The notes under the pieces are model-generated. The model did not search any database. It was not told the origin of the DNA and saw only the letters and a list, made by a program, of their open reading frames with translations. A stretch of DNA of 64,000 bases from Naegleria gruberi (taxonomy: Eukaryota): assembly GCA_000004985.1 (NCBI GenBank), contig GG738870.1. One strand, given 5' to 3'. Of the stretch, positions 18,496-56,584 are shown piece by piece. The position numbers were made by a program, and so were the translations under genes. The stretch's first letter is position 1. Every line of letters starts with the position of its first letter.

Positions 18496-18546
18496 ATTCA
18501 TGAACTTGTTATCTTTGTAAACTCCAATACAAATTCTCTTGAAAAA

Positions 18547-19959: not shown

Positions 19960-20086
19960 ATTTACTTTCCACACAAAATTATGTCTTTATTAGGATTGAC
20001 TCCATTCCCCTCGGGTTTGAAATCGATTCAACTCCGTTTCTGTATGTCACGGGAATTAGCAATAACGATTTATTTAAAAACAAAAA

Positions 20087-20571: not shown

Positions 20572-20613
20572 ACACAACAAATAAAGAGGGTATTTCATTA
20601 AGGGAATTAATAG

Positions 20614-21969: not shown

Positions 21970-22049
21970 TTTTTTAGTTTGAATTTTTGAACTTTTTTAA
22001 AAATTATAAATTTATTTACAATGATGAATTGATTTTTGGTAAATTACAA

Positions 22050-23381
22050 TTAAAATATGAAAGAAATATCTGATAATGGTTTGCAGTTTGAACTTTTAAG
22101 AGATGATTTGAAATTGTCAGCTGTTGAGCCATCAAAAAGCTTGTCATCTCTGTAAAATATTGTGTGCATTCCTCCACAAGCAACTGAGTTAATGTGAAGA
22201 TCTTGATGCTTACTAAAGTCAATTCTCTCAAATGTTGATAGCTTATTTAGGGATGAAATCACATTACCAGAATTTCTGAAACCTCTTCCAGTTCCAAACA
22301 TTACATTTCTATTCTTTTTAGAAATAGCAATAGTGTAATTATCTCCCAAGAAAACATCCCCAATAAATGTATCATGAATGTAAACTTGTGTGAATTTGTA
22401 ATATGTATTAATGGTTGGTAATCCAAGTTGTAGCTCAGAATTCTTTCCTGTCATGAACAATTCACCATCGACTGTCAATACAGCACTGTGCTTTTCACCA
22501 CATACAACTTTTGCAATTCGTGAGGTAGAAGGTATGTCAATCTGCTTAAATTCATTGAGAATAACTACATCTTTACCTGCTCCAGCCATTCCATTTCTAT
22601 TGGATCCGATAGCAAAGAGACGATCTCCCTTCTCATCGCTAACAACTATCAATGAATGATCTTCACCAAATGCCCATTGAGTAATCTTCTCTGATGGTTG
22701 AATAAACTTCTCCATTCCCTTCATTCTTCTAAAAATGTTAATATTATTGTTGTGATGTTGAGCTCTTTCAACACCCAACTCATCAAAATTATTCTTTCCA
22801 GTGCAATAGACATTTCCACTCTCACAAATCAAAGCAGTATGATCAAAACCACAAACAACCTTCGCAATAACTTCATCATTTCCATCATCTTGTTTTAATA
22901 GCTTTAAAGGAACTGGATTAGGAATTGTAACCTCAATCCAATTTTTCAATCCAGATTGGCCATTACAATTATCACCCCATGCAGATAACTTATTATCCTT
23001 AGACAAAGCCATTGTAAAATTAGAACCACATTCAATTGCTTTAATCGAACCTAAACATTTAAAATCCCTAATAACTTTCAAATCAAATGATTGCATTGTA
23101 TTAATGGATTGAGCCAATTGTCCCGAATTATTAGACCCTGATGAGAGAATACAATATTGACTATCACTCTTACTATCCCTTCCCACTACAATGGTATGAA
23201 AGTATCCAGTACGAATACATTCAAGGGAGAAACCACTCGGGAGGGAAACTCTAGCCATCTGATCTAATTTTCTAATCATTGAATCACCAGTTGCTAACTG
23301 ACCAAATTCATTATTACCAAATGAAAGAAAACAAGATCTTTGAGCATCTTGATTGTAGTGGCAGTTATTGCTTGAGGACAT
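22050..23381 (-). CDS. RCC1-repeat (beta-propeller) protein
   Basis: The ORF is 22050..23405, with TTG at 23405 and the first ATG at 23381. It has seven RCC1-like blades with the recurring GxNxxGQLG and CGxxHT motifs. Confidence 0.75.
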   Translation of the reverse strand: MSSSNNCHYNQDAQRSCFLSFGNNEFGQLATGDSMIRKLDQMARVSLPSGFSLECIRTGYFHTIVVGRDSKSDSQYCILSSGSNNSGQLAQSINTMQSFDLKVIRDFKCLGSIKAIECGSNFTMALSKDNKLSAWGDNCNGQSGLKNWIEVTIPNPVPLKLLKQDDGNDEVIAKVVCGFDHTALICESGNVYCTGKNNFDELGVERAQHHNNNINIFRRMKGMEKFIQPSEKITQWAFGEDHSLIVVSDEKGDRLFAIGSNRNGMAGAGKDVVILNEFKQIDIPSTSRIAKVVCGEKHSAVLTVDGELFMTGKNSELQLGLPTINTYYKFTQVYIHDTFIGDVFLGDNYTIAISKKNRNVMFGTGRGFRNSGNVISSLNKLSTFERIDFSKHQDLHINSVACGGMHTIFYRDDKLFDGSTADNFKSSLKSSNCKPLSDISFIF

Positions 23382-23546
23382 TTTTTTGTGTTTTCTTAGT
23401 TTCAAATTTGAGAACAGTGAACTCTTTGAAAATGTTGCGTATTTTACGAATGAACAATGAAATGTTGATGATTTTAAGATGATTGATTGTTGTAGAAACT
23501 TTCTGTTGAGTATGTTAGATGTGATGAGGAAAGATTGAACAATTTA

Positions 23547-24122
23547 TTAAGGTTGTTGGCAATTGACTTGTTTGGTTAATTTAAACTTTGAAATGTCAAC
23601 ATCCAAAGATTTCCATCTTGACATGATATCTGTCAATAAATTAGTATTCAATGATGGTTGTCTAGCTAAAATCCAAGCATATTCAATATGATAAACTCCC
23701 AATATATTTACACATGAAAATACCATTGAATAAGTTTTGTAATCAGTGTCAACAACCCAATATGGACCGGCAAATGGTTGATGTCCAAATGAAACTAATA
23801 ATTTGGCTGGATCTTGTTCTGGATGTGGACAATATGCTTCTCCAATTGCTTGCGAATATTGGCCATTGATATATTCTGAATTGGTGACAATAATTTTGGA
23901 TGAATCTGATGGATTGATGGTATAGTTTGCTTTCGAACAAATACCATTCTTTTCGAATGATGAATCAAATCTGGCAATTTCATACCAAACACCTAAATAA
24001 TTATCAAGCTTGAAATCTTGTTTAGTGTTAACTCTTTGACATTTTCCAAGTTGACCATTAACAGAACTGTTAAATAAATAAAAGATGTAAAAGATAATAA
24101 GAAGGATGGTGAGTGATCTCAT
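23547..24122 (-). CDS. Secreted lipocalin (apolipoprotein D/Blc-like)
   Basis: The ATG at 24122 starts MRSLTILLIIFYIFYLF, a signal peptide. The lipocalin SCR1 motif NYLGVWYEIAR is present, along with conserved Cys residues and a TDY motif. The longer ORF up to 24266 starts upstream of the signal peptide and is unlikely to be real. Confidence 0.75.
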   Translation of the reverse strand: MRSLTILLIIFYIFYLFNSSVNGQLGKCQRVNTKQDFKLDNYLGVWYEIARFDSSFEKNGICSKANYTINPSDSSKIIVTNSEYINGQYSQAIGEAYCPHPEQDPAKLLVSFGHQPFAGPYWVVDTDYKTYSMVFSCVNILGVYHIEYAWILARQPSLNTNLLTDIMSRWKSLDVDISKFKLTKQVNCQQP

Positions 24123-24354
24123 TTCAATTTTTTTCAAATTGTTGGAATTTGTATTGCTGGAAATTAAACTTGAAATGATTCCATACTTGAAGATGGACAA
24201 AATCGTACTTTCTAAACAACGACACAATTTAAATTGCATTTTACAATGACAATTATTATTGGCCAATTATTACATTTCCTTTTACCTTTAGAATACATTC
24301 GTTATAGTTTACTGCAAATAATTTACTCAAAAATTCAAAATATTTTACAAAATC

Positions 24355-25018
24355 TCATTGTTGCTGTTTCGAACATAGAAATGCATTCCATCCCACTGAA
24401 ATAAAATTAATTACCAGAGGTCTATATATCAGTGGAGTGACTATTAACACAAAAATGATTCAATAATTCATTACAAAAAAACAATCACTTACAAAAATAA
24501 TTCAAAGTTTGTACAAAAGGCCAAAATCTAACACTCACAGAATAAGTGTCCACCAAATCTCTCTCAATCTTTGATTTTAACACACTAACTAAAGAATCAC
24601 CTCTCAATCTCTGTTCATTAATAAAATCAGGTGTCTTTTCATCAGGATAATAATAATCAATTGTCGTATTCACAGAATAAAAAAAACTTGTAATAAATGG
24701 TGAATAAATTGTAATTTCAAATCCAACTCTTTTCAGTGTGGTAATGAATTTTTGTCGAGTGGTTGCATTATGTGCAATAGGAAAAACAACTTCCAATAAT
24801 TTCAACCAATTATGAATAATAGGTCCAAGAAAACAACCATAAGCAAACATTTTACATGATCTAATAAGGGAATGATTATCGGAAGATGATGTCTTATTCA
24901 CAATATTTTGAGTGATGGCATCTCCGAGTGATGTTATCACCCCACATGTTACAGATTTTGTTTTCACTGGATGTTCAATTAATAATTGTGAATAACCATG
25001 AATTAGTCGTTTGAACAT
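24355..25018 (-). CDS. Mpv17/PMP22-family inner-membrane protein (Sym1-like); 2 exons
   Basis: The ATG at 25018 starts MFKRLIHGYSQLLIEHPVKTKSVTCGVITSLGD. Exon 1 (24493..25018) ends ...FWPFVQTLNYF at phase 1 on a GTAAGT donor. A 52-nt intron with a TAG acceptor gives exon 2 (24355..24440), FTPLIYRPLVINFISVGWNAFLCSKQQQ*, which completes the family C-terminal motif (WP.VQ..NF..VP...R........WN..LS). The ORF stretch 25019..25159 upstream of the ATG starts with GTG and is probably 5' UTR. Confidence 0.8.
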
Positions 25019-25485
25019 TTTTTTCTTTCCGAAGATGACAAACAATTTTTGATTGACTCCAAAACACCGTACAATGGAATCACATAGCATATAAGAATCA
25101 CCATCCAATGGATTTGCATTATCCATTTCTTCACCATTTTCACATTCAAAATTAATCACATTATTTCAATGTTGAATATTACGAAGTGCATTTTCTTTTG
25201 AAATATTGCTCCGCCGTAGTTGCGGATTCTCAAAATGGAACGTTTGTAAATCAATTAAGCTGGAATAGAGTGTTTTGAAATTTTAAAAAACCTTCTCTTT
25301 ATGAAAGGCACTCTCTTAAGAGCTGTCCTTTTTTAAGCAAGTGTCTTCATTGTTTTTCACAAAGATGACAATAAGTTCCTAATGTAAATATATTCAAAAA
25401 GAAAGAATCTTCTCAATCTACTACTTCACCACCACCAATATAATTGATTAACAGTGCAATCACTACTTCATCAAATCATAAAAAA

Positions 25486-26712
25486 ATGATTTTACTACAC
25501 AAGAAACAACACTTGCTCCGAACAGTATTTTCCAACGCTTGTCATTCGAGGCACTTTCATACCTTTAATTCATCAGCATTCTCTCCATCCTCTCCATCAT
25601 CCAATCAATTAAATTATTTAAATAACAACAATAATCAACAGGCCATATTCTCATCCTCATTCCTTGATTGTGGCAATGCTGTTGCTGCTGCTGATAATGA
25701 TGACAAACAAGCCACGTGGAATTTTTCAATTCTCCATCACGATAATTCAACAAAAAAAATGTCCCAAGAAGCCCCACACCAATTTCATTTAATTGACGGT
25801 CAACAAATTTCTGATGAAATCAAACAAGAAATTGCCACAAGCATTAAGAATGTTGTAGAAAAACAAGAAAAGGATGGTGTTACTGATGTTAAAAAACCAG
25901 GTCTTGCTGTTATCCTTGTCGGAGAAAGAAAGGATTCACAAACCTATGTTTCAATGAAGAAGAAGACTTGTGTTGGATTGGGAATGAATAGTTTTGAAAC
26001 TACTTTTGCTGATGCTGATAGTACCACTACTGAACAAGTTATTGAAGTTATTCAAAAGTACAATCAAGATGATAATGTGAACGGTATTTTAATTCAATTA
26101 CCACTTCCAAAACACATTAATGAAGAACAAGTATTGTCATCTGTTAGCCTTGAAAAAGATGTTGATGGATTATCAGTTTATAATATTGGTAGATTAGCCA
26201 TGCGTGGTAGAGAACCAACATTTATTCCATGTACACCTGCTGGATGTTTGGATTTAATTAAGAGAACTGCCAAGGTATTGAATAGAAAATTGGAAGGATC
26301 TAATGCTATTGTTATTGGTAGAAGTAATATTGTTGGTATTCCAATGTCTCTCCTCTTGTTGCACAAGTTGAACTGTTCTGTTCAAGTTGTTCACTCATAT
26401 TCAAAGGATGTTCCACAAAAGGTTAAGGAAGCTGATATTGTAGTTGCTTGTTGTGGTCAAACTGAATTTGTTCAACCTGAATGGATTAAGCAAGGTGCTA
26501 TTGTCATTGATGTTGGTATTAATGCTGTTGATGACAGTACAAAGAAGGTTGGTTACAGATTGGTTGGTGATGTCAAGTTCAATGATGATTTGAAGAAAGT
26601 TGCTGCTGCTGCAACTCCAGTTCCACGTGGTGTTGGTCCAATGACTATTGCCATGTTGATGAAGAATACTTTTGATAGCTTTAAGAGAAAGCATCCAGAA
26701 CTCTTCCTGTAA
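25486..26712 (+). CDS. Bifunctional methylene-THF dehydrogenase/methenyl-THF cyclohydrolase (FolD/MTHFD2-like), mitochondrial presequence
   Basis: This is a single ORF with its ATG at 25486. The catalytic core is colinear with FolD/MTHFD (LAVILVGERKDSQTYVSMKKK, PLPKHINEEQVL, GRSNIVGIPMSLLL, PRGVGPMTIAML). The first ~110 residues are a basic presequence followed by a Ser/Asn-rich low-complexity stretch. Confidence 0.9.
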   Translation: MILLHKKQHLLRTVFSNACHSRHFHTFNSSAFSPSSPSSNQLNYLNNNNNQQAIFSSSFLDCGNAVAAADNDDKQATWNFSILHHDNSTKKMSQEAPHQFHLIDGQQISDEIKQEIATSIKNVVEKQEKDGVTDVKKPGLAVILVGERKDSQTYVSMKKKTCVGLGMNSFETTFADADSTTTEQVIEVIQKYNQDDNVNGILIQLPLPKHINEEQVLSSVSLEKDVDGLSVYNIGRLAMRGREPTFIPCTPAGCLDLIKRTAKVLNRKLEGSNAIVIGRSNIVGIPMSLLLLHKLNCSVQVVHSYSKDVPQKVKEADIVVACCGQTEFVQPEWIKQGAIVIDVGINAVDDSTKKVGYRLVGDVKFNDDLKKVAAAATPVPRGVGPMTIAMLMKNTFDSFKRKHPELFL

Positions 26713-35372: not shown

Positions 35373-36526
35373 ATGCAACAAGACAAAGATAACAAGAAAG
35401 ATAATCAACAACCAATTGATTTTCAAAAAATTAGAGAAAAAATTGATGAAATTCCGCAAGATGTTTTCTATCAAGTGAATGATGATATTGATGAAGATTT
35501 AATTAGGAAAAAAATTGAAAAGGACGCTGAACAAATTGCTAATCAGAAAATTAAATTAATGTTAAAGAAATTGGAGGAAATTCAATTTGATTCAATTAAA
35601 AAGTATTATAAGGAAAAACCAATTTTAGAAGAGGAAAGAAGAAGAGCAGAGTTGGAAAAACAACAAGAATTATTTTACAAACAAGAGAGAGAAAGGTTAC
35701 TAAAACAACAAGAGGAAGAGGAAAAGAAAAAAAATGAAGAGTTGAAGATAAAAAAGGAGAAGGATTTTATGCATTACAAGAATTATATTGATAATCTTCA
35801 TGATGAAATTGGCAGGTTAACAAGTAATATTATTGAAAATCCAACAGCTCCTTCGCTGATTGACCTGTATGATAAAAAGAATGATCACCCCTTTACTGCC
35901 CAAATACTGCATCAATTTGAAATGGAAGGAATTATTGAAAATCCTACACTCAAACAAGAGCAGGATGATGATAGTATAATCAACTCTAGATTTGCTGAAC
36001 AAAAAAGAAGAGAGGCAATGTTATTGAACCATTCTGAAGAAACTGCCCAAAAGAAGGAAGAAAGAGAAATTGATCTTAATCCTCTCAAGCAGACTTTGTA
36101 AGTTTTCAATTTTACAAATTTAATATTGAAAATTATTTCAGAAGCAAGTATGGCATTAAGGGTTTGAACGAATATTTAGATAAGACAATTGAAGAGAAAA
36201 CCAGAGCGTTCAAATTAGCAGAAGAAGAAATGCGAATGAATGAACTTCTTTTCATATTGAACATGTTGAAGGGTGGAAAAAAATTGAATAAGAATTGGAT
36301 TTCACAAGTTTCTTCAAATAGTGAAACATGGATAGAATTCTTTTCTAAAAATTATCAATCCAAAGAGGAGAAATTAATTTCTACAAATCTAGTGCCAGAA
36401 CAAGATCAAACGATATTGAGTCAGGAGCAACTAGCGTCCCAAAAAGAAAAAAGAATGTACCAATTCAATAACCCCCTATTCACAGAGGAGAGCGTGACTA
36501 ATTTTGTTAGGGCTTCAAAATTATAA
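35373..36526 (+). CDS. Charged coiled-coil protein, hypothetical; 2 exons
   Basis: Exon 1 (35373..36097) ends at phase 2 on a GTAAGT donor. A 44-nt intron with a CAG acceptor gives exon 2 (36142..36526). The protein is rich in E/K/R/Q with a heptad character. I assign no family. Confidence 0.5.
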
Positions 36527-36580
36527 AGGAAAGTGTATTAAGAAAACCATACCATTGATGCATCAATTATCTCAATATGA

Positions 36581-36651
36581 AGGGAGATAGTTCAGTGGTA
36601 GAACATGGGATTGTGGTTCCTAAGATCAGGGTTCGATTCCCTGTCTTCCTA
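36581..36651 (+). tRNA. tRNA-His (anticodon GTG)
   Basis: The sequence folds as a cloverleaf: acceptor AGGGAGA/TCTTCCT, D arm GTTC/GAAC, anticodon stem TGGGA/TCCTA with loop TTGTGGT (GTG at 34-36), T arm CAGGG-TTCGATT-CCCTG, and discriminator A. There is no genomically encoded G-1 (A at -1). A T5 run starts 5 nt downstream. Confidence 0.9.
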
Positions 36652-36655
36652 CACC

Positions 36656-36660
36656 TTTTT
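36656..36660 (+). terminator. Pol III T-run terminator for tRNA-His copy 1
   Basis: TTTTT lies 4 nt after the discriminator base. Confidence 0.6.
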
Positions 36661-37546
36661 AACAGCGTAATTTTGAATATGGTTGGTAAATAAGATTTGC
36701 TTGAATACTTAGTTGCGTCTAGACTACATTAACCACAAATTGTTTTTATTGGTCCAAAATCAAGTTTGACTAATCTTTATAATAAATTCACAGATACTGT
36801 AACTCATTCCTATCTTGATTCTTCAGAATTAGTAAATATAGGTTCTCTCTTATTGTACTTTATATTAATTAGATTGTAAAATGAGATAAAACAATTTTGC
36901 CAATTTTCTTTCTTCATTGACTAGGATTACTCGTCTGTTACGTTATTAATAAAATTTAGACCAATAACGGTTCCAAACTAATTAACTATCTGAATACATG
37001 TTCCTTTTATCTGCATAGACCTATAGCCAATGAATATATCAAACAACTAACAAACGAAGACCTTAACATCTCCATTCTAATCCAACTCAAATTGTTGAAT
37101 GCTTCAAAAAAGAACAACTTGAAAAGATAACAGTAACAAAACAACTACTTGATGTTTAACCTTTTCATTGTAAAGTCTTTCATCAAACAACAAATAGATG
37201 TGAAAGTTGATAATCAACAATCAATACCTCACTTTTTTTTAAAATTCTTTAGTGGTGATTTTTTAAAATATCCAAAAATGAACCCGATTAACCGCTTGTG
37301 GCCTCTATCAAATTTTTTAGGCGCCATCTCGAACAAATAAGTCACTGACAAAGGAGGTTGTGCCATCAAATTCGCCTTATAAAGCTCTTATTAAGTTTGT
37401 TAGAATTTGTTGAGGTAAAATTTGATTCTTTAGTTTGATCCAAGAAGCTTGTTGAAGTACGTCCCCGTTGTTGTAATTCACTATAAAACGCTACTGGTTA
37501 GCTTCTAAAAAAAAGCACACAACAACAACAAATATAAACCTTAACA

Positions 37547-38524
37547 ATGCACAACAACTCTATTCACGAATATTTCCACGGTGTTCAATTGGCCGAATTG
37601 ATTCCTGCTGGTCAAAAGCTCGTCGTCTTGAAGGAAGATGAAACCCTCCAAGAAGTTGTTAATCAATTGTCTACCCACCATCTCTTGGCTGCTCCCGTTG
37701 TTGATAAGCAAGGAAAGTTGGTCGGTATGCTCTCAATGCTCGACATTGTTCAATTCATTGTTGCTTCCTCACCAGAAAATGTTGATTTCAAGAATTGGCA
37801 AGAACTCGAAATCTCAGGAAGATGTATTAACTTGCAAACTGTTAAGCACGTTATGGGATTCTCTGCTAGAGATCAATACATGCCATTGAAGAGCAATCTC
37901 CCAGCCACTATGGCTATTGAATTGTTCGCCAAGGGTGTCCACAGAGCTATTGTAGAAGAAGACGTCACCACTGATAAATATATTGGTACTTTGTCTCAAA
38001 CTGATATCCTCAAGAGATTGGCTGAACACCTCCACATGGGTAAGATGAAGCAATTGGGTGAACAATTGGTTAAGGATTTAGGTTTGGGTTTGGCTAAGCC
38101 AGTTACCATTGACGGAAGTGAAAATGTTTTGCACGCCATGAAGGAATTGGCTAAGGCTAATGTTTCTGCTCTCCCAGTTGTTGATCACCACGGTCACTTA
38201 GTTGGTAACTTCTCTGCTTCCGATTTGAGAGGTTTCTACTTGGACAGAATTCCACACTTTGAACTTACCACTCGTACCTTCTTGGAAAAGTACTCACCAA
38301 AGTCTTTGGTTCCATTCTTTGTTGAATTGGATGGTTTGAAGTTTGTTGATTTGGTCAAGAAGTTGACTCACCCAGAAATTCATGATGTTATCCACTCTCA
38401 AACTGTTAAGGTTGACCATTCCATGCACAGAGTTTGGGTTGTTTCTGATGAAAGAAAGGTTGTTGGTGTTATCACTCTCACTGATATCATGAAGGTTATT
38501 ATTGACCATGTTGAAATGGACTAA
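37547..38524 (+). CDS. AMP-activated protein kinase gamma subunit (Snf4-like), 4 CBS domains
   Basis: This is a single ORF with its ATG at 37547. It has four CBS motifs (for example HHLLAAPVVDKQGKLVGMLSMLDIV and VSALPVVDHHGHLVGNFSASDL), and its length and order match the AMPK gamma core. Confidence 0.85.
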   Translation: MHNNSIHEYFHGVQLAELIPAGQKLVVLKEDETLQEVVNQLSTHHLLAAPVVDKQGKLVGMLSMLDIVQFIVASSPENVDFKNWQELEISGRCINLQTVKHVMGFSARDQYMPLKSNLPATMAIELFAKGVHRAIVEEDVTTDKYIGTLSQTDILKRLAEHLHMGKMKQLGEQLVKDLGLGLAKPVTIDGSENVLHAMKELAKANVSALPVVDHHGHLVGNFSASDLRGFYLDRIPHFELTTRTFLEKYSPKSLVPFFVELDGLKFVDLVKKLTHPEIHDVIHSQTVKVDHSMHRVWVVSDERKVVGVITLTDIMKVIIDHVEMD

Positions 38525-38667
38525 ATTAATTATTCTAACTTATTGGTGGAATTTATTTTACTAAATTATCGAGAAATTTTACCTTAATAAAAATAAAAAA
38601 AATTCATAAAATAGTAATTTGGAACAAATTTTGCAGAGCTGGTTGATACAAGTTTTTGATTTGACAT

Positions 38668-40227
38668 TTAATGTACTAACTGTATTTTAAATTTCACAAT
38701 TCCATCATAATCAATATTGACCAGTTTGATTCTCAATTTCTTTTCTCCAATTCTATGATAGAAAATTCTATCCTCAAACAATTCTACAGATGGACTAATT
38801 TCTCCAAATAATTGAAGAACTCTATTGGATGCATCCTTTCTTACTTGTATGTCAGCTTCAATGCTTTCAAACACCTGATCACATCCGGCAGCCAATACTT
38901 CTAAAGTAACATTTTTTAGATGAGGAATACCTTCGAATAGTTGTGTGAGAGTAAGCTCTTCTAATTCAGAGTCAAGAAGGTACAAAGTTTCAAGATTTGG
39001 AAACTTTTTGTTTGCCAATTCAACAAATCCTTGCTCAACATTTTCATCATTGTCCCGTTCTTCCTCTTCTTGATGTTCCTCGTCCTCAGCTTCATTCTTA
39101 ATGTAGCCAAATCTTGCCCATGTTAATCCTTTAAGTTTAGGGAATAATTCTTTTAAAACTCCATCATCATCACAGCCACTAAACTCATCAAAATTGAAAT
39201 CAAACTTTTTAAGTTTTGTCAACTTGTCAAGATCTAATAAGTGTTCACCATAAGGTAACCCGTCAAATAGGTTAAGAGACTCAAGGCTATGTAGTTGATT
39301 AGTAATAATTGGAAGATTATCTGATTCATTCAAATAACGCTCTCCAAAAGTGAGGTCACTAAGTTTTTTACAATGTTCTACAAGTCCTAAAAACACAGCA
39401 TTTTCATATGCCATGCAATATCCCATTTTCAACTTTCTCAAATTTGGTGCATGCTTGAATAAACTCACTAGTGTAGTAGAACTAAATGATTCATTTCCAC
39501 TAACAACATCAAAATATTCCAAATTTTCTAGAATAGGGAAAGAATCTCCAATTTCATATTCGCCTAAATCAATTCTAAGTTTCTTTAATTTGGGCATGCC
39601 AGTAAAAATACAATCTAAAATCTTGTTTGGAAATAGACTACCAAAGATTAATATTTCCAATTCTTTCAATCTAGAGATCCATTCAGTAAAAACATCCAAT
39701 TGTTCTTCATCCCTTAAAAAAACAATAAATGAATTTGCCAATCTCAATTCTTTCAACCCATCAAAAACACCAGAACTAATACATCTCTTGAAAAATTCAC
39801 TTGTTAATTCGAAACTCAATGACTCATTATATTCATCAATAGAGCCCAAATGCAAAACTTTACATCCATTCTTTGGTGAAACATTGATAATGTAATCGAG
39901 CAATCTATTCAAATAATCCCTATCGAACTTTCTAATTTTGAGAAAGGAACTTGTAGGATACCCATCTTTCACTGCAATGCTAACTCTTTCATAAACTAAA
40001 CTCTTTCCTTCACCACCTCCCAAAATATTGTAAAACATTTTACAAACTGGCATTACATTTGGCAGCAATTCCCTAGTTGCTTCAAGATATGTAAACACAT
40101 GAGCCCAAACATCAGAAACAATCCTTCCAACAGGTTCATGATTAGATTTCAACATGATCAACGATTCCGACTTGTAAGTTTTGCTGATCTTGTTATTTTC
40201 TTCAATAGTTTCAAGTTGTCGTTTCAT
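38668..40227 (-). CDS. F-box-like/leucine-rich-repeat protein
   Basis: This is a single ORF with its ATG at 40227. It has an N-terminal F-box-like stretch (IVSDVWAHVFTYLEATRELLPNVMPVCKMFYNIL), multiple LRR units (LxxLxLxxC/N pattern) and an acidic insert. The plus-strand ORF 39350..39895 is antisense to it. Confidence 0.7.
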   Translation of the reverse strand: MKRQLETIEENNKISKTYKSESLIMLKSNHEPVGRIVSDVWAHVFTYLEATRELLPNVMPVCKMFYNILGGGEGKSLVYERVSIAVKDGYPTSSFLKIRKFDRDYLNRLLDYIINVSPKNGCKVLHLGSIDEYNESLSFELTSEFFKRCISSGVFDGLKELRLANSFIVFLRDEEQLDVFTEWISRLKELEILIFGSLFPNKILDCIFTGMPKLKKLRIDLGEYEIGDSFPILENLEYFDVVSGNESFSSTTLVSLFKHAPNLRKLKMGYCMAYENAVFLGLVEHCKKLSDLTFGERYLNESDNLPIITNQLHSLESLNLFDGLPYGEHLLDLDKLTKLKKFDFNFDEFSGCDDDGVLKELFPKLKGLTWARFGYIKNEAEDEEHQEEEERDNDENVEQGFVELANKKFPNLETLYLLDSELEELTLTQLFEGIPHLKNVTLEVLAAGCDQVFESIEADIQVRKDASNRVLQLFGEISPSVELFEDRIFYHRIGEKKLRIKLVNIDYDGIVKFKIQLVH

Positions 40228-40469
40228 TTTTTTTGGGTTTGTGTTTTCAAAATAATTTTGGCGCCAAACAATAAAACTAACTCCGACGGTAAACTGATTT
40301 TAACGTGTTACCTCTTGGAGTAATCCAATTATTCAATGATTTTCAAAGAACATAACACTTGAAAGTGTTGAAATTGGAATCAAATGGCTCATCATACAAC
40401 TGTGTTATTGTAAAGTATTACCACACAAAGAAGCTCTTCAATTTTGATATTTAATTTTTAATCAAAAAA

Positions 40470-41261
40470 ATGTCTCGTAGCTGCCACACACGTCTCGCCC
40501 ACAAACAAATGCTCAACGATTTGATCGACGATATAAAAAACGTTTTCGAAAGTGATTTAATTGTACAAGTTAGCGAAGCTCTTGGAGGTGCTCTATTTTT
40601 CTATCTCGATAAAAAGAATTCTAAATTTCACCTCTCACTATCCTATTCCTTCTCTGGTATGCAAAAATTTCATGTCTTTTCCTTCCAAGTAATTCACAAA
40701 AATGTACAGGATAGACAATTAGTAATTTCTATTCATTTACAAAAAGGAAAAAATATTTCAGAGCAGTCAACTCTGTTTATTGGAAGAGGAGAAAAGAATT
40801 CTAAAAAGATTTATCTAGTTAAGATTGAACCTTCTTTTAGTAGTTTGTCGTTGGCTAAATTGAATAAGAAACTTTTCACACCATTCGGAAGAAAGAGGAA
40901 ATTGGATGCTTTTGATAATGTGAAAGCTAAATTCCTAATGATTAACATGAATCTTTTTCTTGTGGAGGAGGAAAATCATGCTATACAGGAGGAATGCACA
41001 TATATTATGAATAATCACTGGGGATACTGTGGTCTAAATGATTTATATTCATATTCAAGTCTACAATTCCAATATTGTGTTTTTAATAGAGAAAATTACT
41101 ATGTGAAAGGTAGTGTCACTAAATCTGTAGATGGTCATAAGAGATTTGGTTTTAACAAAATACCTTCCACAGCAAAATGTGATCGATGGAGAAGATTGGT
41201 AAAGCCAGAGAATGATTCGGAAACTAGATGGACTAAATCTGTTGGATTTTATTGCGAATGA
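40470..41261 (+). CDS. Hypothetical protein (263 aa)
   Basis: There is an ATG-initiated ORF with host-like codon usage. I did not recognise any family. Confidence 0.4.
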   Translation: MSRSCHTRLAHKQMLNDLIDDIKNVFESDLIVQVSEALGGALFFYLDKKNSKFHLSLSYSFSGMQKFHVFSFQVIHKNVQDRQLVISIHLQKGKNISEQSTLFIGRGEKNSKKIYLVKIEPSFSSLSLAKLNKKLFTPFGRKRKLDAFDNVKAKFLMINMNLFLVEEENHAIQEECTYIMNNHWGYCGLNDLYSYSSLQFQYCVFNRENYYVKGSVTKSVDGHKRFGFNKIPSTAKCDRWRRLVKPENDSETRWTKSVGFYCE

Positions 41262-41398
41262 ATTTTCATTTCAATTTCTCTTGAGAAATATGTGGCAGAA
41301 GTTACATAAAGATTGTCCTTATAATAAAAATCGAGTGGACAGAGAGAAGTGCCACACTTTGTGGTTAATGTAGTCTTGATCTTATTTACCAAGCTGTC

Positions 41399-41404
41399 AA
41401 AAAA
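41399..41404 (-). terminator. Pol III T-run terminator for tRNA-His copy 2
   Basis: TTTTTT on the minus strand lies 4 nt after the discriminator base. Confidence 0.6.
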
Positions 41405-41407
41405 GGT

Positions 41408-41478
41408 GTAGGAAGACAGGGAATCGAACCCTGATCTTAGGAACCACAATCCCATGTTCTACCACTGAACTATCTCCC
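41408..41478 (-). tRNA. tRNA-His (anticodon GTG), inverted identical copy
   Basis: This is the exact reverse complement of 36581..36651, with all 71 positions identical. The -1 position is again A, and a T6 run follows on the minus strand at 41399..41404. Confidence 0.9.
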
Positions 41479-41640
41479 TTCATGTTATAGAGAATCCAAG
41501 CCAAGCATTGATGATAATAAAATAATGATTAAAAATAGATTCGAAAAAAATTATTCATACAAGACGAAGATCACATACAAAAAATTACCGTCATCAAGAT
41601 AATATTTAGGGCTGAATAATTATTAACTTAAATTTTAACA

Positions 41641-44600
41641 ATGCCCTATAACACTAGACATCATTCTACTCCACGTGGATCATATTCCAAATTTTTTGAT
41701 GATGCTGAAGAGGAAGAAGAAGAAGAAGAAGAAGCCCAAACTAGAAAGGTAGGTTTTATACAATTACTCTTTGACCATATATCAAACATATCAATAGCCT
41801 CCGACAAGGAGAACAAGTACAAGGTCAAGTCATAGAAATTCATCAAGTGATAGTGAGGAAATAGATGATCTGACATCTAAACGATCAACAAGACAAAATA
41901 AACCAAGACATAACAGAATAGAACAGGAAGAACCTGAGGATGAGTATTCCGAAAGTATTGCTTCTTCAAGACCAAAAAGAACACCAAAAAAAACAACATA
42001 TACTGATTTTTATACGGAAGACTATGATGAAAATTCGGATAAGGAAACTCCAAAATCATCAAGGAAAAAAGCACCAGCAAGAAGAACAACTGGCACTAAA
42101 GTACAAATTAAAAGGGAATTAATTGAAGCACATACTAGTGAAATCCCGAATCCAACAATTGTACAACAGCCATCCGAACAAGTTGAAACATCAGTAATAA
42201 CTTCTGGTGTTATTGATGACGTATTTAAAGATATTATTCCAAATAATCAACCTATCACTACTGAACAAAACAGTATACCAACTATGGAATTTCCAACTAG
42301 TACCGTACCACCAAGTAATATGGAATTTGATACATCACTCAACAGAAGCCAAAGTGCTATTTCAGAGCAAAGTGATGATCATAAAGGCAAAAAAAGAAAA
42401 AAGAATGAGGAGGATGAGGATTTCGTTATGGATGATGATGAACCAGAGGAGGAAGAAGCCATTGAAGTATCTGATGAAGCTTTATCAGATGCTATTTCTT
42501 CCAATGATGAATTAGAAATGAGACCAACAAGAAGTAGAAAAAAGCCAAAATTTATTGTGGATGATGATGAGGAATTGGAAGAAACAGAAACACCAAAAGA
42601 GAATGGAAAGGATATTAAAAAGAGATTAAGGCCAAGAACCCAAGCTCAACTTAATCCTTATAGCCACCCTATTCCAAATATTGACAATATTGAAATTCCA
42701 TCAAAGAGTACTATGATAAAGGAACAACAAGAACTCTTGGCACCTTTAGATTCCTTAACATTCCAATTTTCAGAGTCTGAATCAGAATCTGACAACGATG
42801 AAACAGGTTTGGTCAATCCAGCATTTGGTAAGAAAGGAGAATATGATCACATTAAGCCAATCAATATTGAACAACTTAAAAAGAAACCATCTGCTGATAT
42901 TGATCCAGTTTTTTCCAAACCTGTTGGATTTGACATGGTTGGTGGTCTTCATAAGCACATTAATGCATTGAAAGAAATGGTAGTATTACCCCTTTTATAT
43001 CCAGAAGTATTTAACAAATTTGATATTACTCCTCCAAGAGGTGTCATATTTTATGGTCCACCTGGTACGGTAAGTTTTGAAATCAGATATATTGTAATAT
43101 TAACAACTAATTTTAGGGTAAAACACTTGTTGCTAGAGCTCTTGCTAGCACCTGTGGTACTGGAACAGATGGAAACAAACCTATTGCCTTCTTTATGCGT
43201 AAAGGTGCTGATATCCTCAGTAAATGGGTTGGTGAAGCTGAAAAACAATTAAGACTTTTGTTTGATGAAGCAAAGAGACTTCAACCTTCCATTATTTTCT
43301 TTGATGAAATCGATGGTTTAGCACCAGTAAGATCATCAAAACAAGATTACATTCACAGCTCAATTGTATCAACTCTTCTTGCACTTATGGATGGTTTAGA
43401 TAGTAGAGGTCAAGTCGTGGTAATCGGAGCCACTAATAGAATAGACTCTATTGATCCAGCTCTTAGAAGACCAGGAAGATTTGACAGAGAGTTACTGTTT
43501 ACTCTTCCTTCTAAAAAAGCAAGAAAAGAAATTTTACAAATTCATACTAAGAATTGGGTACCTCAAATACCAGACGATCTGAAAAATTACATTTCTCTAA
43601 AATCTGTTGGATATTGTGGAGCTGACATTAAAGCACTCTGTGCTGAATCTGCTCTTAACGCTCTTAAAAGATCCTACCCACAAGTTTATACCAGTCAATC
43701 AAGATTAGTTCTTGAGCTTGATACAGTAGAAGTTACGAAGGTAGATTTCCTAAGAGCAATGAAATCAATAGTACCAGCATCACATAGAAATGCCGTAATT
43801 CATGCATCTCCTCTTCCAACTCAACTTGCTCCTTGCCTAAGCCAAAAATTAGAAATGGTTTTGAGAATATGTACAGATGCCTTCCCATTATGTATCAAAA
43901 CCCTAGAGGATAAAGTTGATAATGAAGACCTCGTAATAGAAACTGGTCCAATTTTGGATGATTTTGAAGGAGTAGATGAAAAAACATTTGAAAGCAATTC
44001 AAACGATTTCTTTATCAATCCTCCAACATTCAGACCTTGGGTCTTGATTCACGGACAAAAAGGAATGGGTCAAAATCTTATTGCAAGTGCAGTTTTGTAT
44101 AGTTTAGAAGAGTTCCCATTGTTCTCCCTAAGATATGAAAACCTTATTTCGAATACCTCATCTAGGAGCGAAATTGAAGCAATTATTAATATTATTGCCG
44201 ACTCTAGAAAGAATTCACCATCTATCCTTTGGCTTCCTAATCTTGATGAGTGGTTTGAAAAGAGTACAGATTTAATGAAATCTACTTTGATTTCACTCCT
44301 CAATGAGATACCCTCCTCTGTATATGTGTTCGTCCTTGCTACTTGTAACTACTCTTCTGAAGAATTACCACAAGAATTCACTGAATTATTTGCTGATTAT
44401 AGATTTGAAGTTAGCTCACCATCCAAAGACGAAAGAGTTGAAATGTTCAAACCTATTCTTGCTGATATTGTTAGATCTCCACTTAAGAAAACAAAGGTTA
44501 AGAAAGTTTATCCAACTTTACGTTTGGCTCCTCCAAAAGAACAAAAATCCTCAGAAATCGAGCCAAGCAAAGAAAAGAAATTGCAAAAGCAAGAGAAAGT

Positions 44601-45591
44601 CTATCTGAAAGACTTGAGAAGTGCACTTCGTGAAATTATAACTAGAATTATGGCAAATAAGGTATATACAGTATTTTTGAAACCTTCAAATGAGGAGCAA
44701 AGAAAGTTAATTCCTGATTCATCCAATGAGGAAGATGTTAAAATTTATCTAGTTGATATTTTATTTAAATTGGAAGCTAAGAAGTATAATACAGTTAAAG
44801 AATTCGCAAAAGACATTGAAAAGATTGTTAGAAACGCAGAATCCTACATAAAACAACCAGCTAAGTATATTGATAGACTTACAGTGAAGAGTAAGGGTAA
44901 TGCTCTTTATGACTCTGTAAGACAAGCAATCAAATTACAAATTTCAGAAGAATTAGCCAGAAAATGTAAACATATTGCCAAGAGAAGGATGTTACACGCA
45001 CCTCAACATCAAGATTCAGATGAGGGAACAGAAGAGGTAACAGAAGTTGGACCAGGAACAAAGGAAAAAGATCCAATAATTATTGATGAACAAATGACAG
45101 ATGCCCCAGCAGAAGGAGGAGAACCAAATGACAAACAAATGGATATTAGTGATCCAGTAGTATCTACTATTGAAACAACACCAGTTACCACCACTACTAC
45201 TGACTCTAATCCTTCAACTAGTAATAGCATTGAGAATACATGTGTGCTCACAACAACAGCACCACCTGTTGCCGAGTATCACACTCCTGAAGCAGAACAA
45301 CAGACTATTGCTCTACTTCCTCCTATTGCAACATCATCAGTAGCACTTGAAATCCCAATTATTGTTGAGGAAGAAGTAGAACAACCAGAAGTACCAGTTT
45401 GTGTCGACCACGATCGTATGAATAATTGGTTTGACAACCTTATCGCTCTCACTGAAAGTACCTCTCTAGAGGCACTCGACAAGGTCTTCAGTGTAGTATA
45501 CAAGAGCATCTATCGATACAGATTTACAGCTGATAGAAACCCATTAATGGAAGAACTTGAACGTTATGGCCGAACATTTGAAAAAAAATAA
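41641..45591 (+). CDS. ATAD2: ATAD2/Yta7-type AAA+ ATPase with a C-terminal bromodomain-like region; 3 exons
   Basis: Exon 1 (41641..41748) reads MPYNTRHH...EEEEEEEEEAQTRK and ends on a GTAGGT donor. A 49-nt intron leads to exon 2 (41798..43069), a single stop-free frame (the track shows only its ATG-initiated part at 42284..43252) that ends ...FYGPPGT on a GTAAGT donor. A 47-nt intron with a TAG acceptor leads to exon 3 (43117..45591). Long stretches are identical to human ATAD2 across Walker A/B, sensor 1 and the arginine finger (FDMVGGL, GPPGTGKTLVARALA, IIFFDEIDGLAPVRSS, VVIGATNRIDSIDPALRRPGRFDRE). A second degenerate AAA region and a bromodomain-like helix bundle near residue 1000 follow. 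Confidence 0.85.
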
Positions 45592-45730
45592 AACACCCTT
45601 AACGACCACTTTACCTCTCCCCTATTAATTTTACTGTAAATTTAAAATTTTGAGAGAGAAATAGAGAACATCAACAACAACTTGCTCGGAATAGATTATC
45701 ATCATCATAGATACTTAATCTGCTTGGGAA

Positions 45731-46780
45731 ATGGCTGTAACAGGAAAACCATCAAGCAGCTCTTCACGGAGGACTAATAGTGCACCTAAACCAACATCAA
45801 TATTAAGCAGGAAGGATGTTGAAATTAATAGTAAATACAAAAGAGAACCAACTTTTGTAGATTTGTATCATCAACAAGGTATGTTTCTCCAAGTCCGAAA
45901 ATAAGATCTTATACTTTCTCAAATAGCAAGAGATGCAAAGCTCTACTATCATCAACACGGAAATAGAAATGTTCAGCTGGACTATACGCCCAATAATAGT
46001 TTTGTTGAAAAAAGGGAACCTCACTTTGTGGATTACACAAAAAAGGGACAATATTTCAATAGATTATCGACATTAATTAATGATCAACCATCCTCTTTAG
46101 ATTATACTCCAAATTATTCATATCTTCATGAACGAGTAAAGGGAGGTATAAATATGAGAAAGTCAACAGATAGAGAAACTCATTTTCATAATATTAATGA
46201 AGGGAAGAAACAACAAACAAAAGCAGTAGCATATGTAACACCAAAATCATCCTTAATAGACGATCAACAAAATAAGTTTGTTAAAAGATCTACAAATATT
46301 TATCAAGGAAAAGAATCTCATCCACCTGATTTTTTCAGAACTACCTCAAGAAAAGAAGAAAAGAAGCCAGACACTTCGAACACTAATTATACGCCGTCAT
46401 ATTCTTTAACAACAAGCAGAACAACCCACTATTACGATTTTGAAAAGACAACAGACAGAGAAAAAGCAAAGACATCATGGATACCTTCAAGGTCTCAATT
46501 GGGTAAACATTACGATGTTGCTTATGATGTTGTTGAAATACCTTCCAAAAACTATGTAAATATGAAACGATCAGCTGGTAGAACTGCTCCTAAAAAAGGA
46601 GTAACAGTGGATTTATCTTATACTCCTATTCACAAATTAACAGAGAAGAATTTGGGATGGTCAACTGATTTATTCTTATCTACTGGAAGGGCTGATGATG
46701 TAAAAGCGATAACACAGAGTGCAGATAACTTGGTAAGAAGAGTAAGAGGAGAATTAAGAAAATTTAATAATTCGGAATAA
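45731..46780 (+). CDS. Hypothetical protein with five [D/N/S]YTP motif repeats; 2 exons
   Basis: The ATG is at 45731, and exon 1 (45731..45878) ends at phase 1 on a GTATGT donor. A 48-nt intron with a TAG acceptor gives exon 2 (45927..46780). The motifs LDYTPNNSF, LDYTPNYSY, NYTPSYSL and LSYTPIHKL recur every 30-60 residues. The track's GTG 'M' at 46028 is internal. Confidence 0.5.
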
Positions 46781-46786
46781 ACTCAT

Positions 46787-49332
46787 TTAATTCTTTCGTT
46801 TATAGAAGTAGAGGTAGCCCATATCGAAAGGTGTGTTTTCACTTTGTAAAACTTTGCTATCATTAAACAAAACCCATCTCTTTTCACCATTTCCAACATC
46901 CTTCTTGAGATGGCAAACATAGTGACCACATGAAGTATTTGAACCCATATGACTAATGAAACCAACAAGTTCATACTTTCCACTTCCATCCAAATACTCT
47001 TCTTCTTTCTTTTCAGCTGGTTTTTCATTAGAAGCTTCATTAAGATAACTGTCCATATCATCCATATGACTGAAGAGCCATTCAGCAGCTCTTTCAATAT
47101 TGTTTTGAGTTTGCTTTAAAGCAACAACAGCATGAGTGGAAGGGAAACCAAGATTAGCTAGTGATTCAATGGCATCAGCAGAAGGAGCATTTCCTGATGA
47201 GCTCTTTTCTTGTTTAGCTTCAGGAAGTGGATTATCAATTTCAGGATCATCACAATGCTCAAATACCCATTCCATAGCCTCATTGACACCCTTATTGTTG
47301 GATTTCCAAGCACCTCTCTTAGCTCTATTTTCTGGAATTCCCATTTCTACCAAAGATTGAACGATTTGCATATCAACAAAAATGGATTCTGTCTTCTTTT
47401 CATCACTTGGAAGTTCTTGTTCATTTGGTTTAAGTCCAGTTCCTCTGAGATGAGTAATATCAATCTCTTCAGCATCAGTAATAAATACATCCAATTTCTT
47501 TGGAACCCATCCATCTAAAATAAACTTTCTTACTTGAACAGCCAAATATTGTGGGAAAGTTGCAAGACTAGTTTGTTTCAAGCCAATAGTATTTCTTCCA
47601 AGGGCAGAGCTATAGAAATGATCAACAGGTTCTGTCTCAGCAAAGGCTTCAATACACTTAGACATTGGAATCATTGGTCTAATTTGTTGTTTCTTTTCAG
47701 TACTTGTACTCAAAGGCTTGCTGTTTATATTCTCAGCCAATTTGAGTTCTTTTTCTATTCTTTCTCTTTCCTTCTCTTGTTTACAGAACTCTTCATATTC
47801 TGCCTTATTGGTTGCTTCAGAAAGTGGAACTGGGAGTGAAATCAAATTATCCTTTCTGTAAGTATATTTAACCTTAGATGTTTCTGAGCATTCAATTCTT
47901 TCTTCCACATTGTAATTGAAAATACTATTTACAGAGTCTGTACAGTTAATTCTCTTGTCTTCTCTTTCGATTAATTGGAGTAAGTGTTGGTAAAATTCTA
48001 CAGCATCTTGTTGTCTCATAGTGCTGAACTCTGGATGGCCCTTTCCAACAACATTCTTGAATGATCTTGGTGGAATACCTTCTTGGAATGAATCGACGTG
48101 CTCTTCTGACTTGGAATAATCTCCAGAAAGTAATCCATTAGCGAGTTTTGCCATTTGAAGAGAGAAAGTATCCAATGAACTAGATCCTGTATAACAAGAC
48201 AATTCCTTATCGTGATATCTTTCTTGAACTTCTGGGAATGAGAAAAGAGTTTGCATGACACTAGCCAAATAGCAAGAATTACCAATGTTCTTCAAACCAG
48301 TAAAACCTGGCCCATACATTGGTTGCAAATGCTTATCAGATTCTTGAATTCTAGTAAAATCAAAGTTCAAATTTTGGTCCAATTCCATTTCAGCCATAGT
48401 TTTAGTTGTTTTCTTCATTTCTCTGATATTAATTCCAAAATATTCCAAATGTTCAACAAGCTTGGAATCCTTAACCATCTTATCTTCAGCATATGAATAT
48501 ACGTCAGCCTTTGGTTCTCCGTTATCATCCAATTGAATAGTTCCCAATTTGACACAAACAGGGAATCCAGTCTTTTGATAATGTTCAACAGCATGATTAT
48601 TACCACCAGTACCATCCCAGAATTTTCTACCACATCCAATATGACCGTCAGAAAGATTCAACCAAAGATTATCTGTGATATCACACTCAGCACACTTCCA
48701 TCCATGAGCTGGGACTTTAATATTTCCAATTTGTTTAAGCTCCATAGTATGTTTAGATTCAGTTAACTCTTCACCTTCCCATTTGAGAACTTCTTGTTTA
48801 CGTTCTGCAGATTGGTTTTCCAAAATACCTTTAATTGAAAGTTTAACTTTCTCAGGTAAATCATTATTTGGTAATGGTATTACAACATTATTTGGTTCTA
48901 ATAATACAAGTGACAACAATTCATCATAAAGTTTTTCGTCATTTTCTTCCTCTTCTTTGATTTGGAATCCTCCTTCAACACCAATAGCCATTTTGGTTGG
49001 TTGATCTTCAGATTTTTCTTCAATAGGCTTTTCCTTCTTGATCTTTTTAATATTCAAGAATACAGTATTACCAGTTAATTGATGATGTCTTCTTGTGTAC
49101 TTTGGAGAGAAAGCCAAGAATGTATTCAAACAAACATTGATTCCTCCTTCCGATTTCTAATGATCAAACCAATAAAAGTTACTTTTATACACAAGTTTAA
49201 AAACAAATATACTTACTGGTGAATCAAAAGAAAGACAACATTCTTCCTTATGAATTGGAGTATGACTAGTTGGAATATTGATCCTGCTAAAATCAAACTT
49301 TAAAGAAGAAACATCAACGTGGGATTGAGACA
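46787..49332 (-). CDS. USP5: Ubiquitin carboxyl-terminal hydrolase 5/Ubp14 (isopeptidase T): ZnF-UBP, USP catalytic domain, two UBA domains; 2 exons
   Basis: Exon 1 (49216..49332) reads MSQSHVDVSS...KEECCLSFDSP and ends on a GTAAGT donor. A 60-nt intron with a TAG acceptor gives exon 2 (46787..49155). The protein is colinear with human USP5: the ZnF-UBP motif HGWKCAECDITDNLWLNLSDGHIGCGRKFWDGTGGNNHAVEHY, the Cys box GLKNIGNSCYLASVMQ, two UBA domains and the His box GHYVCHLKK. Confidence 0.9.
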
Positions 49333-49524
49333 TTTTTTTTGTTCTAAATTTAATTTTATGGTTCCTCTCACTTGTAATGATCAGTCTTTGTTATCCAGAT
49401 GTTCAATTGCTATTTGTAAGAAGTTCTTGTTTTTCGGGTTCAACATCACACAAGAAGGCTTTTTTTCATCATCACTTGCATCAAATATAAACATAAATAA
49501 ATTTTAATTAATTTTATTAAAAAA

Positions 49525-55970: not shown

Positions 55971-55987
55971 TTTTTTAATAAGACACT

Positions 55988-56164
55988 ATGCTACTGGGAT
56001 GTGTTATCATTACAGCAATATTAATAAAAATGAATAGAGGATGTATGGATGTTAACAGTTTAGTAGTTGGAGGAGTACAGGATGTAAAAGACAATGTGGT
56101 CGGAGGATTCCACACTTTGAATAAGGCTACATCAATTTTGAAGAGAACACTTATCACCTGTTGA
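55988..56164 (+). CDS. Stand-alone truncated paralog of the Gly/Val-rich 11-mer module (58 aa), possibly a pseudogene
   Basis: There is an ATG-initiated 58-codon ORF reading MLLGCVIITAILIKMNRGCMDVNSLVVGGVQDVKDNVVGGFHTLNKATSILKRTLITC*. About 85% of nucleotides match 60342..60545 of the Exo84-like gene's first exon, but it has one 33-bp repeat unit instead of three and ends at a TGA where the other copy continues. It is below the 60-aa track threshold. The minus ORF 55975..56172 is its antisense. Confidence 0.45.
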   Translation: MLLGCVIITAILIKMNRGCMDVNSLVVGGVQDVKDNVVGGFHTLNKATSILKRTLITC

Positions 56165-56584
56165 TCATTCAATCCTTTGAATATGTTTACTTTTCCATTG
56201 ACAGAATTTCACATTATTTGTAGATTTGAATTCAGCTTCTTCCTCCTGTTTTTCAGTTAGTAGTTTTACATTAATTTATAATTCATTCTTTGTATTTGTT
56301 TACACAAGAGAATAGTTAATAATAAGAATAGACAAAAGATTCTTGAATGTCCAAGTTTTTACAATGATAAAATGGCCAAACACAACCCTAACTACCGATA
56401 GAAATAAAAAATCAATCTCATTCATGACGGTTGAAATATGAGAATGACAGTTTACAATGATTTTGAAACTAAAATGATTGGATGATCATAGACTTATTGT
56501 ATTGACGTAGAGAATTCACAACCCATACAAACTCTTAAAAGTGTTTGGTCTAAGAGAAAGAAAGGTATTAAAAAAAACATAACA

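Follow-up and report, generated by a model that had tools for sequence, protein, structure and literature searches.

The genome of Naegleria gruberi contains 924 tRNA genes (tDNAs). Adjacent tDNA pairs separated by less than 1 kb number 77 versus 39 expected, and pairs serving the same amino acid are approximately 8-fold enriched, with 8 pairs in the '++' orientation versus 1.0 expected and 4 in the '+-' orientation versus 0.5 expected; same-amino-acid '-+' pairs number 0 versus 0.5 expected (Bermudez-Santana et al. 2010, PMC2888827). According to the same study, the relocation of tDNAs is connected, at least in part, with chromosomal rearrangement, and tDNAs pause replication forks; yeast comparative genomics cited there describes tRNA genes as fragile sites and synteny breakpoints (PMC2888827). 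In Drosophila, 17 of 29 inversions (59% of those fixed) carry inverted duplications of unique breakpoint sequence. These duplications measure 46 bp to 1.9 kb (median 321 bp), are 88 ± 5% identical and decay via substitutions and small deletions, and they were explained by staggered breaks, fill-in and end-joining (Ranz et al. 2007, PMC1885836). The present analysis concerns two identical tRNA-His(GUG) genes in opposite orientation, separated by 4,757 bp, in a 64,000-nt stretch of nuclear DNA of this heterolobosean amoeba (GenBank assembly GCA_000004985.1, contig GG738870.1), hereafter the window. The pair is best read as an ordinary DNA-level paralogous duplication that is linked to chromosomal rearrangement and includes a non-functional flank; a probability of roughly 0.7 is assigned to this reading.

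Structure of the duplicated tRNA-His unit

Three tRNA genes were detected in the window (G+C 32-36% throughout) by ARAGORN and Rfam, namely two tRNA-His(GTG) genes and one tRNA-Met gene. These genes, the duplicated units and their 3' flanks are located as follows.

36581..36651, plus strand: tRNA-His(GUG) copy 1 (ARAGORN; Rfam RF00005, 69.2 bits)
41409..41479, minus strand: tRNA-His(GUG) copy 2 (ARAGORN; Rfam, 69.2 bits)
36574..36743, plus strand: duplicated unit, copy 1, about 170 nt (inverted-repeat arms and alignments)
41354..41486, minus strand: duplicated unit, copy 2, 133 nt (inverted-repeat arms and alignment)
36652..36743, plus strand: 3' flank of copy 1, 92 nt (shared blocks plus stretches of 16 and 22 nt present in copy 1 only)
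41354..41408, minus strand: 3' flank of copy 2, 55 nt (CACC and T6, GACAGC, TTGGTAAATAAGA, TCA, AGACTACATTAACCACAAA, GTGT)
59761-59833, plus strand: tRNA-Met (ARAGORN, Rfam)

The two tRNA-His genes are identical in 71 of 71 positions and have the anticodon GTG in both copies. Given 924 tDNAs in 41 Mb, one would expect about 0.22 further tDNAs, whatever their kind, within ±4.9 kb of any single one, and far fewer with the same anticodon. Transcription runs rightwards from copy 1 and leftwards from copy 2, with the 5' sides outward and both 3' flanks inside the bracketed segment. An earlier sequence-only reading had described the genes as facing outward; they are convergent, as copy 1 lies at the left on the plus strand and copy 2 at the right on the minus strand, and the flank coordinates in that reading themselves imply that both 3' flanks are inside the segment. 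Its position for copy 1 (36581..36651, plus strand) coincides with the ARAGORN and Rfam calls. Copy 2 had been put at 41408..41478, one base off, where 20 of 71 bases match; with this gene at 41409-41479, the 71/71 identity claimed earlier is reproduced.

A Pol III (RNA polymerase III) terminator stands directly 3' of each tRNA, CACC followed by T5 in copy 1 and by T6 in copy 2. The internal B box GGTTCGATTCC of copy 1 occupies positions 36630-36640, and the corresponding internal match of copy 2 lies at 41420-41430. Both are apparently functional nuclear tRNA-His(GUG) genes, paralogous to each other. The first pair of the encoded tRNA is A1:U72 and the discriminator base is A73. The genomic base at position -1 is A in both copies, and therefore the G-1 mark is not genome-encoded; it would have to be added post-transcriptionally, as Thg1 does elsewhere, or be lacking, as in some protists.

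The unit of copy 1 consists of a 7-nt 5' leader, the tRNA, CACC with T5, and a 3' flank that extends to the limit of detectable homology. The repeat finder reported inverted arms at 36574-36660 and 41400-41486 (87 nt, 99% identity) and a second inverted block at 36718-36743 and 41354-41379 (26 nt, 92%). According to MAFFT and gapped pairwise alignments, the flank of copy 1 reads CACC-T5-AACAGC, a 16-nt stretch, TTGGTAAATAAGA, a 22-nt stretch and TCTAGACTACATTAACCACAAATTGT, and that of copy 2 reads CACC-T6-GACAGC, TTGGTAAATAAGA and TCAAGACTACATTAACCACAAAGTGT. Block TTGGTAAATAAGA of copy 1 begins at 36683, and AGACTACATTAACCACAAA occupies 36721-36739. The flanks are identical in 51 of 54 aligned bases and differ in addition by T5 versus T6 and by indels of 16 and 22 nt, copy 1 being the longer.

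When the 200-nt downstream regions of the two copies were compared by gapped local alignment, the score was 68.5, compared with 22.6 ± 3.8 (maximum 38) for shuffled sequences, and 0 of 2000 shuffles reached it. The same test applied to the tRNA-Met flanks produced background scores only. Sequences TTGGTAAATAAGAT and AGACTACATTAACCACAAA each occur twice in the window, on both occasions at the tRNA-His flanks, the chance expectation being 0.11 and 0.05, respectively. Beyond 36743 and 41354, flank homology is at background level and not significant, and blastn found no repeat of the tRNA-His region within the window other than the tDNA unit, whose ends read TCTCAATATGA... and ...CACAAATTGT. The similarity of the 3' flanks noticed by eye thus stands when aligned computationally, and the shared blocks come out in the same order with two insertions in copy 1, as had been claimed. 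The proposal that a tRNA plus flank was duplicated, and not a tRNA alone, agrees with a flank homology that is significant and sharply bounded.

On the 5' side, four bases directly upstream of the copies are identical, and 6 of 7 leader positions match within the repeat arms. The leaders read AATATGA in copy 1 and AACATGA in copy 2, so that leader and trailer each tell the two loci apart. Local alignment of the 200-nt upstream flanks scored 18.0 versus 18.7 ± 2.9 for shuffles, which is background. In addition, 4 positions in the 25 nt upstream of copy 2 differ between two N. gruberi genotypes, which argues against a constrained upstream element. The TCT..ATA..ATGA element suggested for the upstream side by the sequence-only reading is not borne out: the alignment score there is that of background, and the 5' similarity spans about 7 nt and varies by genotype.

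The shared flank blocks are probably without a function of their own. Neither flank, on either strand, has a fold more stable than its shuffles (z = +0.90 and -0.06 for the flank of copy 1). An Rfam E-value scan of 36300-41800 returned the two tRNAs and three sub-threshold chance hits elsewhere, and no other known RNA. An external B box (GGTTCGANNCC) of the Dictyostelium type was searched for within approximately 100 nt downstream with at most one mismatch; it was rejected, all B-box matches nearby being internal. A 30-mer from the 3' half of tRNA-His and a 37-mer core had 0 hits each among JGI metagenome contigs. The 19-mer flank block had two hits in viral contigs, which were rejected as chance matches to a repetitive phage coding region without a tRNA. 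The literature on Naegleria tRNA genes and repeats contained nothing specific to tDNA flanks.

Gene order in relatives and in a second genotype

The bracketed segment and its borders contain the following features.

35373..36526, plus strand: left neighbour, open reading frames (ORFs) of 242 and 120 aa, unannotated, no Pfam family
36744..37546, no strand: spacer of about 800 nt from the unit to the CBS start, no ORF of at least 80 aa
37547..38524, plus strand: protein with four CBS domains, AMPK-gamma/SNF4-like architecture (Pfam and PDB matches)
38668..40227, minus strand: 519-aa ORF with sub-threshold leucine-rich-repeat matches (Pfam)
40470..41261, plus strand: 263-aa orphan ORF, no Pfam family
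41641..45591, plus strand: ATAD2-like gene, AAA+ ATPase and bromodomain, several exons (Pfam, orthologues)

Clear orthologues of the ATAD2-like gene were found in Naegleria lovaniensis, Naegleria fowleri and Willaertia magna. In all three relatives the gene order is importin (minus), a small gene (plus) encoding 170-200 aa, ATAD2-like (plus), a gene of approximately 337-340 aa (plus) and a UBP-type deubiquitinase, UBP (minus). The block from ATAD2-like to UBP is intact in N. gruberi (41641-49390). The small gene and importin are found 27 kb away, at 9549-14207, and are inverted. A further block, comprising Complex I 51K, UBX and tetrahydrofolate (THF) dehydrogenase genes, is located at 15917-26709 and inverted in N. 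gruberi and lies rightward in N. lovaniensis. Relative to these species (loci L006, L007 and L008), both displaced blocks represent a multi-inversion rearrangement. As judged from gene order, this stretch of chromosome is heavily rearranged relative to other heteroloboseans and has undergone several inversions.

Between the displaced blocks and the conserved one are 15 kb of non-syntenic DNA (26.7-41.6 kb) that adjoin the ATAD2-like start codon and have copy 2 at their end, so that copy 2 is the first feature outside the gene block conserved in three relatives. A search of 26.7-41.7 kb for relics of the small gene or of other syntenic genes found the CBS gene and the first ATAD2-like exon only. 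In N. lovaniensis the CBS orthologue lies on another contig, among unrelated genes and without a nearby tRNA, and that of Willaertia is likewise in an unrelated neighbourhood without a tRNA. A 67%-identical environmental CBS homologue on a 2-kb ENA contig is also without a tRNA.

ARAGORN found no tRNA gene in 18-24 kb around the ATAD2-like orthologues of N. lovaniensis, N. fowleri and W. magna, and hence none upstream of these genes. When the unit was compared by blastn with 110 kb of the relatives' loci, only short chance matches were obtained. On this comparison, copy 2 was acquired at its current site within the N. gruberi lineage, and the arrangement is specific to that lineage, at least at the copy 2 position. 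The 110 kb of relatives' loci (L004-L008, L011; N. lovaniensis, N. fowleri, Willaertia and an environmental relative) contain 0 tRNA genes, versus 3 in the 64-kb window. The relatives may thus have fewer tDNAs per kb, although the sample is too small for significance.

A second N. gruberi genotype is represented by two contigs of the ENA metagenome assembly ERZ929261, which match the window at 98.7% and 99.6%. Contig L001, collinear with 35485-38662, carries the left gene, copy 1 with its full flank and the two long stretches in it, the spacer and the CBS gene in its entirety. Contig L012 is collinear with 41411-44615; it begins inside copy 2, of which it holds 69 of 71 nt, and extends into the ATAD2-like gene. 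The second genotype therefore has the reference arrangement at the left inner and the right outer junctions, the two that the contigs cover, and no orientation polymorphism of the kind that the sequence-only reading had wished to look for is seen at these two. Both tRNA-His copies are therefore older than the split of the two sampled genotypes. At position 36576, L001 has the base present in copy 2, and therefore the 87-nt arms were probably once 100% identical. The first position of L012 (41411) is 2 nt short of the 3' end of copy 2, although the assembler k (127) is longer than the 87-nt repeat; this end could be due to low coverage or to a local polymorphism of the trailer.

Origin of the duplication

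The same anticodon, an identical tRNA and homology that continues past the terminator into the flank characterize the two genes as paralogues. Since transcription by Pol III would stop at the T-run, the flank homology means a DNA template; the homology includes leader bases as well as sequence beyond the terminator, and the unit was therefore copied at the DNA level, without a Pol III transcript as template. In the proposed course of events, a chromosome piece of approximately 135-170 bp would have been duplicated, consisting of a few leader bases, the 71-nt gene, the T-run and 45-80 nt beyond it, with no RNA intermediate and no mobile element taking part. After the duplication, the tRNA would have been kept identical under purifying selection, and the hitch-hiking 3' flank would decay, now showing 3 substitutions, the T5/T6 difference and the 16- and 22-nt indels.

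Copying most likely took place in the course of a rearrangement, and two routes may be considered. By the first, an inversion of about 4.8 kb would proceed via staggered breaks, fill-in and end-joining, leaving the stretch between the staggered nicks duplicated, in inverted orientation, at either end of the segment. The otherwise unique sequence is indeed inverted at the segment ends, has sharp ends and falls in the range of tens to hundreds of bp; this route is put forward tentatively. By the second, repair synthesis or template switching would copy the tDNA unit into a nearby break, and the predicted present-day structure is identical. A more specific proposal, that a staggered-break micro-inversion of about 4.8 kb left the pair as its footprint and helped to assemble a lineage-specific three-gene block beside the conserved synteny block, is regarded as doubtful.

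Several points weigh against the favoured reading. The inversion of the segment itself is a presumption, and its three genes have no syntenic counterparts in the loci retrieved from the relatives. Neither the repeat finder nor alignment revealed a second inverted-duplicate pair from the other breakpoint; under the staggered-break model such a pair may be missing if only one of the breaks was staggered. The copies of the flank were counted in the 64-kb window, and other tRNA-His genes may carry it. The synteny breakpoint is placed within 26.7-41.6 kb, and the break need not be at the tRNA.

Membership in a dispersed family would make the two copies independent of each other, the unit being either a non-autonomous cassette that inflates the tDNA count or a conserved functional tRNA-His trailer. 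The unusually high count of 924 tDNAs in N. gruberi (PMC2888827) and the sharp boundaries of the unit on both sides fit this explanation; nevertheless it is unlikely, as there are only two copies in 64 kb and these are neighbours, the tRNA-Met flanks are unrelated, the flank has no fold, external B box or Rfam match, and its two large indels speak against selective constraint on the flank. At the ends of the unit, inspection found no target-site duplications, terminal (inverted) repeats, A-rich tail or simple-repeat tail. A tRNA-derived short interspersed element (SINE) was rejected in view of the missing tail and target-site duplication and of the T5/T6 terminator, which separates the canonical tRNA from the 'body' and is incompatible with a SINE transcript. 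In yeasts and Dictyostelium, tRNA genes are favoured targets of retroelements (cited in PMC2888827), and one might suppose the scar of a retrotransposon (a solo long terminal repeat or a Ty3/TRE-like footprint) or tRNA retrogenes. This origin is very improbable: the shared sequence of 55-92 nt is one-sided and contiguous with the tRNA, and the 5' leader and the homology past the T-run would be missing from a Pol III retrocopy. No reverse transcriptase, integrase, transposase or gag domain was found in the neighbouring ORFs, and the window holds no other copy; for want of such ORFs and of any repeat beyond the tDNA unit, the footprint of a tRNA-targeting retrotransposon (Ty3, DGLT-A or TRE-like) was rejected as a candidate. 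The suggestion, made from the sequence alone, of a tRNA-associated short element or a retroelement history fails on the same grounds, namely the terminator, the lack of target-site duplications and terminal repeats, the lack of transposon domains and the lack of a further copy in the window.

An active invertible segment, in which recombination between the 87-nt arms flips the 4.7-kb block and both orientations coexist, is improbable. The arms are 99% identical (100% with the variant of the second genotype), and the earlier remark that the locus is a substrate for inversion is formally correct for an inverted repeat of this length and identity; contig L012 ends inside copy 2, leaving the right inner junction outside the contig. 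On the other side, L001 keeps the reference order all the way from the left gene, past copy 1 and the long flank, to the end of the CBS gene, and the arm-adjacent flanks have diverged independently, although frequent exchange would be expected to homogenise them. Inverted repeats of 87 bp are a poor substrate for spontaneous recombination. No recombinase gene was found near the segment, and a programmed invertible segment was rejected for this reason and for the reference arrangement of the second genotype at two junctions. The idea that one tRNA-His gene was placed twice by the assembler is refuted. Short repeats sometimes mislead assemblers, and nothing specific to this locus speaks for such an error; the copies differ by indels and in the sequence to either side of them, and both loci reappear, each in its own unique surroundings, in a metagenome assembly made independently from another genotype. 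The duplication of a chromosomal tDNA unit in connection with rearrangement therefore remains the favoured explanation.

Neighbouring genes and comparison with described systems

The stop codon of the left neighbour lies 54 nt ahead of tRNA copy 1. The spacer 36744..37546 shows no similarity to the surroundings of copy 2 and is unusually long for this compact genome. In two transcript-like contigs (L002 and L003), only 24 and 13 nt, respectively, precede the CBS ATG, and therefore the spacer is not a 5' untranslated region. The CBS protein aligns over approximately its full length with mammalian AMPK gamma-1 and with the gamma subunit of Schizosaccharomyces pombe, and through residues 5-231 (partial) with yeast SNF4; the AMPK/SNF4 matches have E values of 1e-8 to 1e-10. 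Its identity is 100% with an N. gruberi predicted protein, 77% with N. lovaniensis and 57% with Willaertia magna, and an exact-protein look-up matched short ENA and Logan contigs. The name AMPK-gamma in the sequence-only reading is reasonable as a description of architecture, given the four CBS domains and the alignments with AMPK gamma-1 and the S. pombe subunit. As for the F-box/LRR (leucine-rich repeat) label of the 519-aa ORF, the LRR part is weak, its matches being sub-threshold, and the F-box part was not confirmed, no F-box being detected with Pfam. Exact-protein look-ups of the 519-aa ORF and of a 798-aa ORF gave no match.

A search for relatives of the 263-aa ORF among 5.8 billion proteins returned only its own N. 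gruberi annotation (250 aa), and, apart from the N. gruberi assembly, an exact-sequence look-up found it nowhere in the contig collection; this ORF may not be a real gene. The 3' flank of copy 2 starts 147 nt past its stop codon. The 5' end of copy 2 lies 161 nt upstream of the ATAD2-like ATG (41641), in divergent orientation, and the N-terminus MPYNTR encoded there is conserved in N. lovaniensis. Around their start codons, the CBS and ATAD2-like genes (37535-37562 and 41629-41656) share a direct similarity of 28 nt (79%; TAAA..TTAACAATGC), which is probably due to a common translation-start context and not to homology. Elsewhere in the window, ORF fragments at 55978-56208 (minus strand) and 60180-60641 (plus strand) are 62% identical over 74 aa and contain GGVQDVKGLVV repeats. 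They are on opposite strands, about 4.2 kb apart, on either side of tRNA-Met, and may represent another small inverted duplication beside a tRNA gene, or else match through low complexity.

In annotation, both tRNA-His copies should be kept as genuine genes, and 87-nt identical arms are a known hazard for short-read assembly. If the staggered-break footprint were true and recurrent among the 924 tDNAs, breakage at tRNA genes with fill-in could both multiply tRNA genes and scramble gene order in Naegleria. With many inverted tDNA pairs of this kind, one mechanism might underlie both the roughly 900 tDNAs of N. gruberi, a very large number, and the poor synteny among Naegleria species.

Among described systems, tRNA-derived SINEs resemble the locus in that a short, unrelated 'body' follows the tRNA sequence and that more than one copy is present. 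They are unlike it in that the tRNA here is canonical (69 bits), a terminator precedes the 'body' and the two copies in the window are adjacent. With the fragile sites described at tDNAs the locus shares the position of copy 2 at the border of a conserved block that is free of tRNA in the relatives; it differs in being a single locus without statistics, with a breakpoint interval 15 kb wide. The breakpoint duplications of the Drosophila melanogaster group are comparable in that the size of the tRNA-His unit (133-170 bp) and its identity (94%) are within or near their range, and the unit is likewise sharp-edged, inverted at the segment ends and decaying, in a region with inversions. The Drosophila inversions, however, are far larger, the duplicated sequence there is a fragment of a protein gene and here a tRNA gene, and the inversion of the 4.7-kb segment is presumed here. 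The locus resembles the local same-anticodon tRNA pairs of protists in consisting of two identical genes, here a few kb apart, in a tDNA-rich genome. The published cut-off was <1 kb, so the 4.8-kb tRNA-His pair is outside those counts; those surveys included no flank-homology analysis, whereas the flank homology of the present pair proves duplication at the DNA level. Taken alone, the tRNA-His pair is routine tRNA-gene turnover and a new instance of a known event, of modest value as a clean, datable case.

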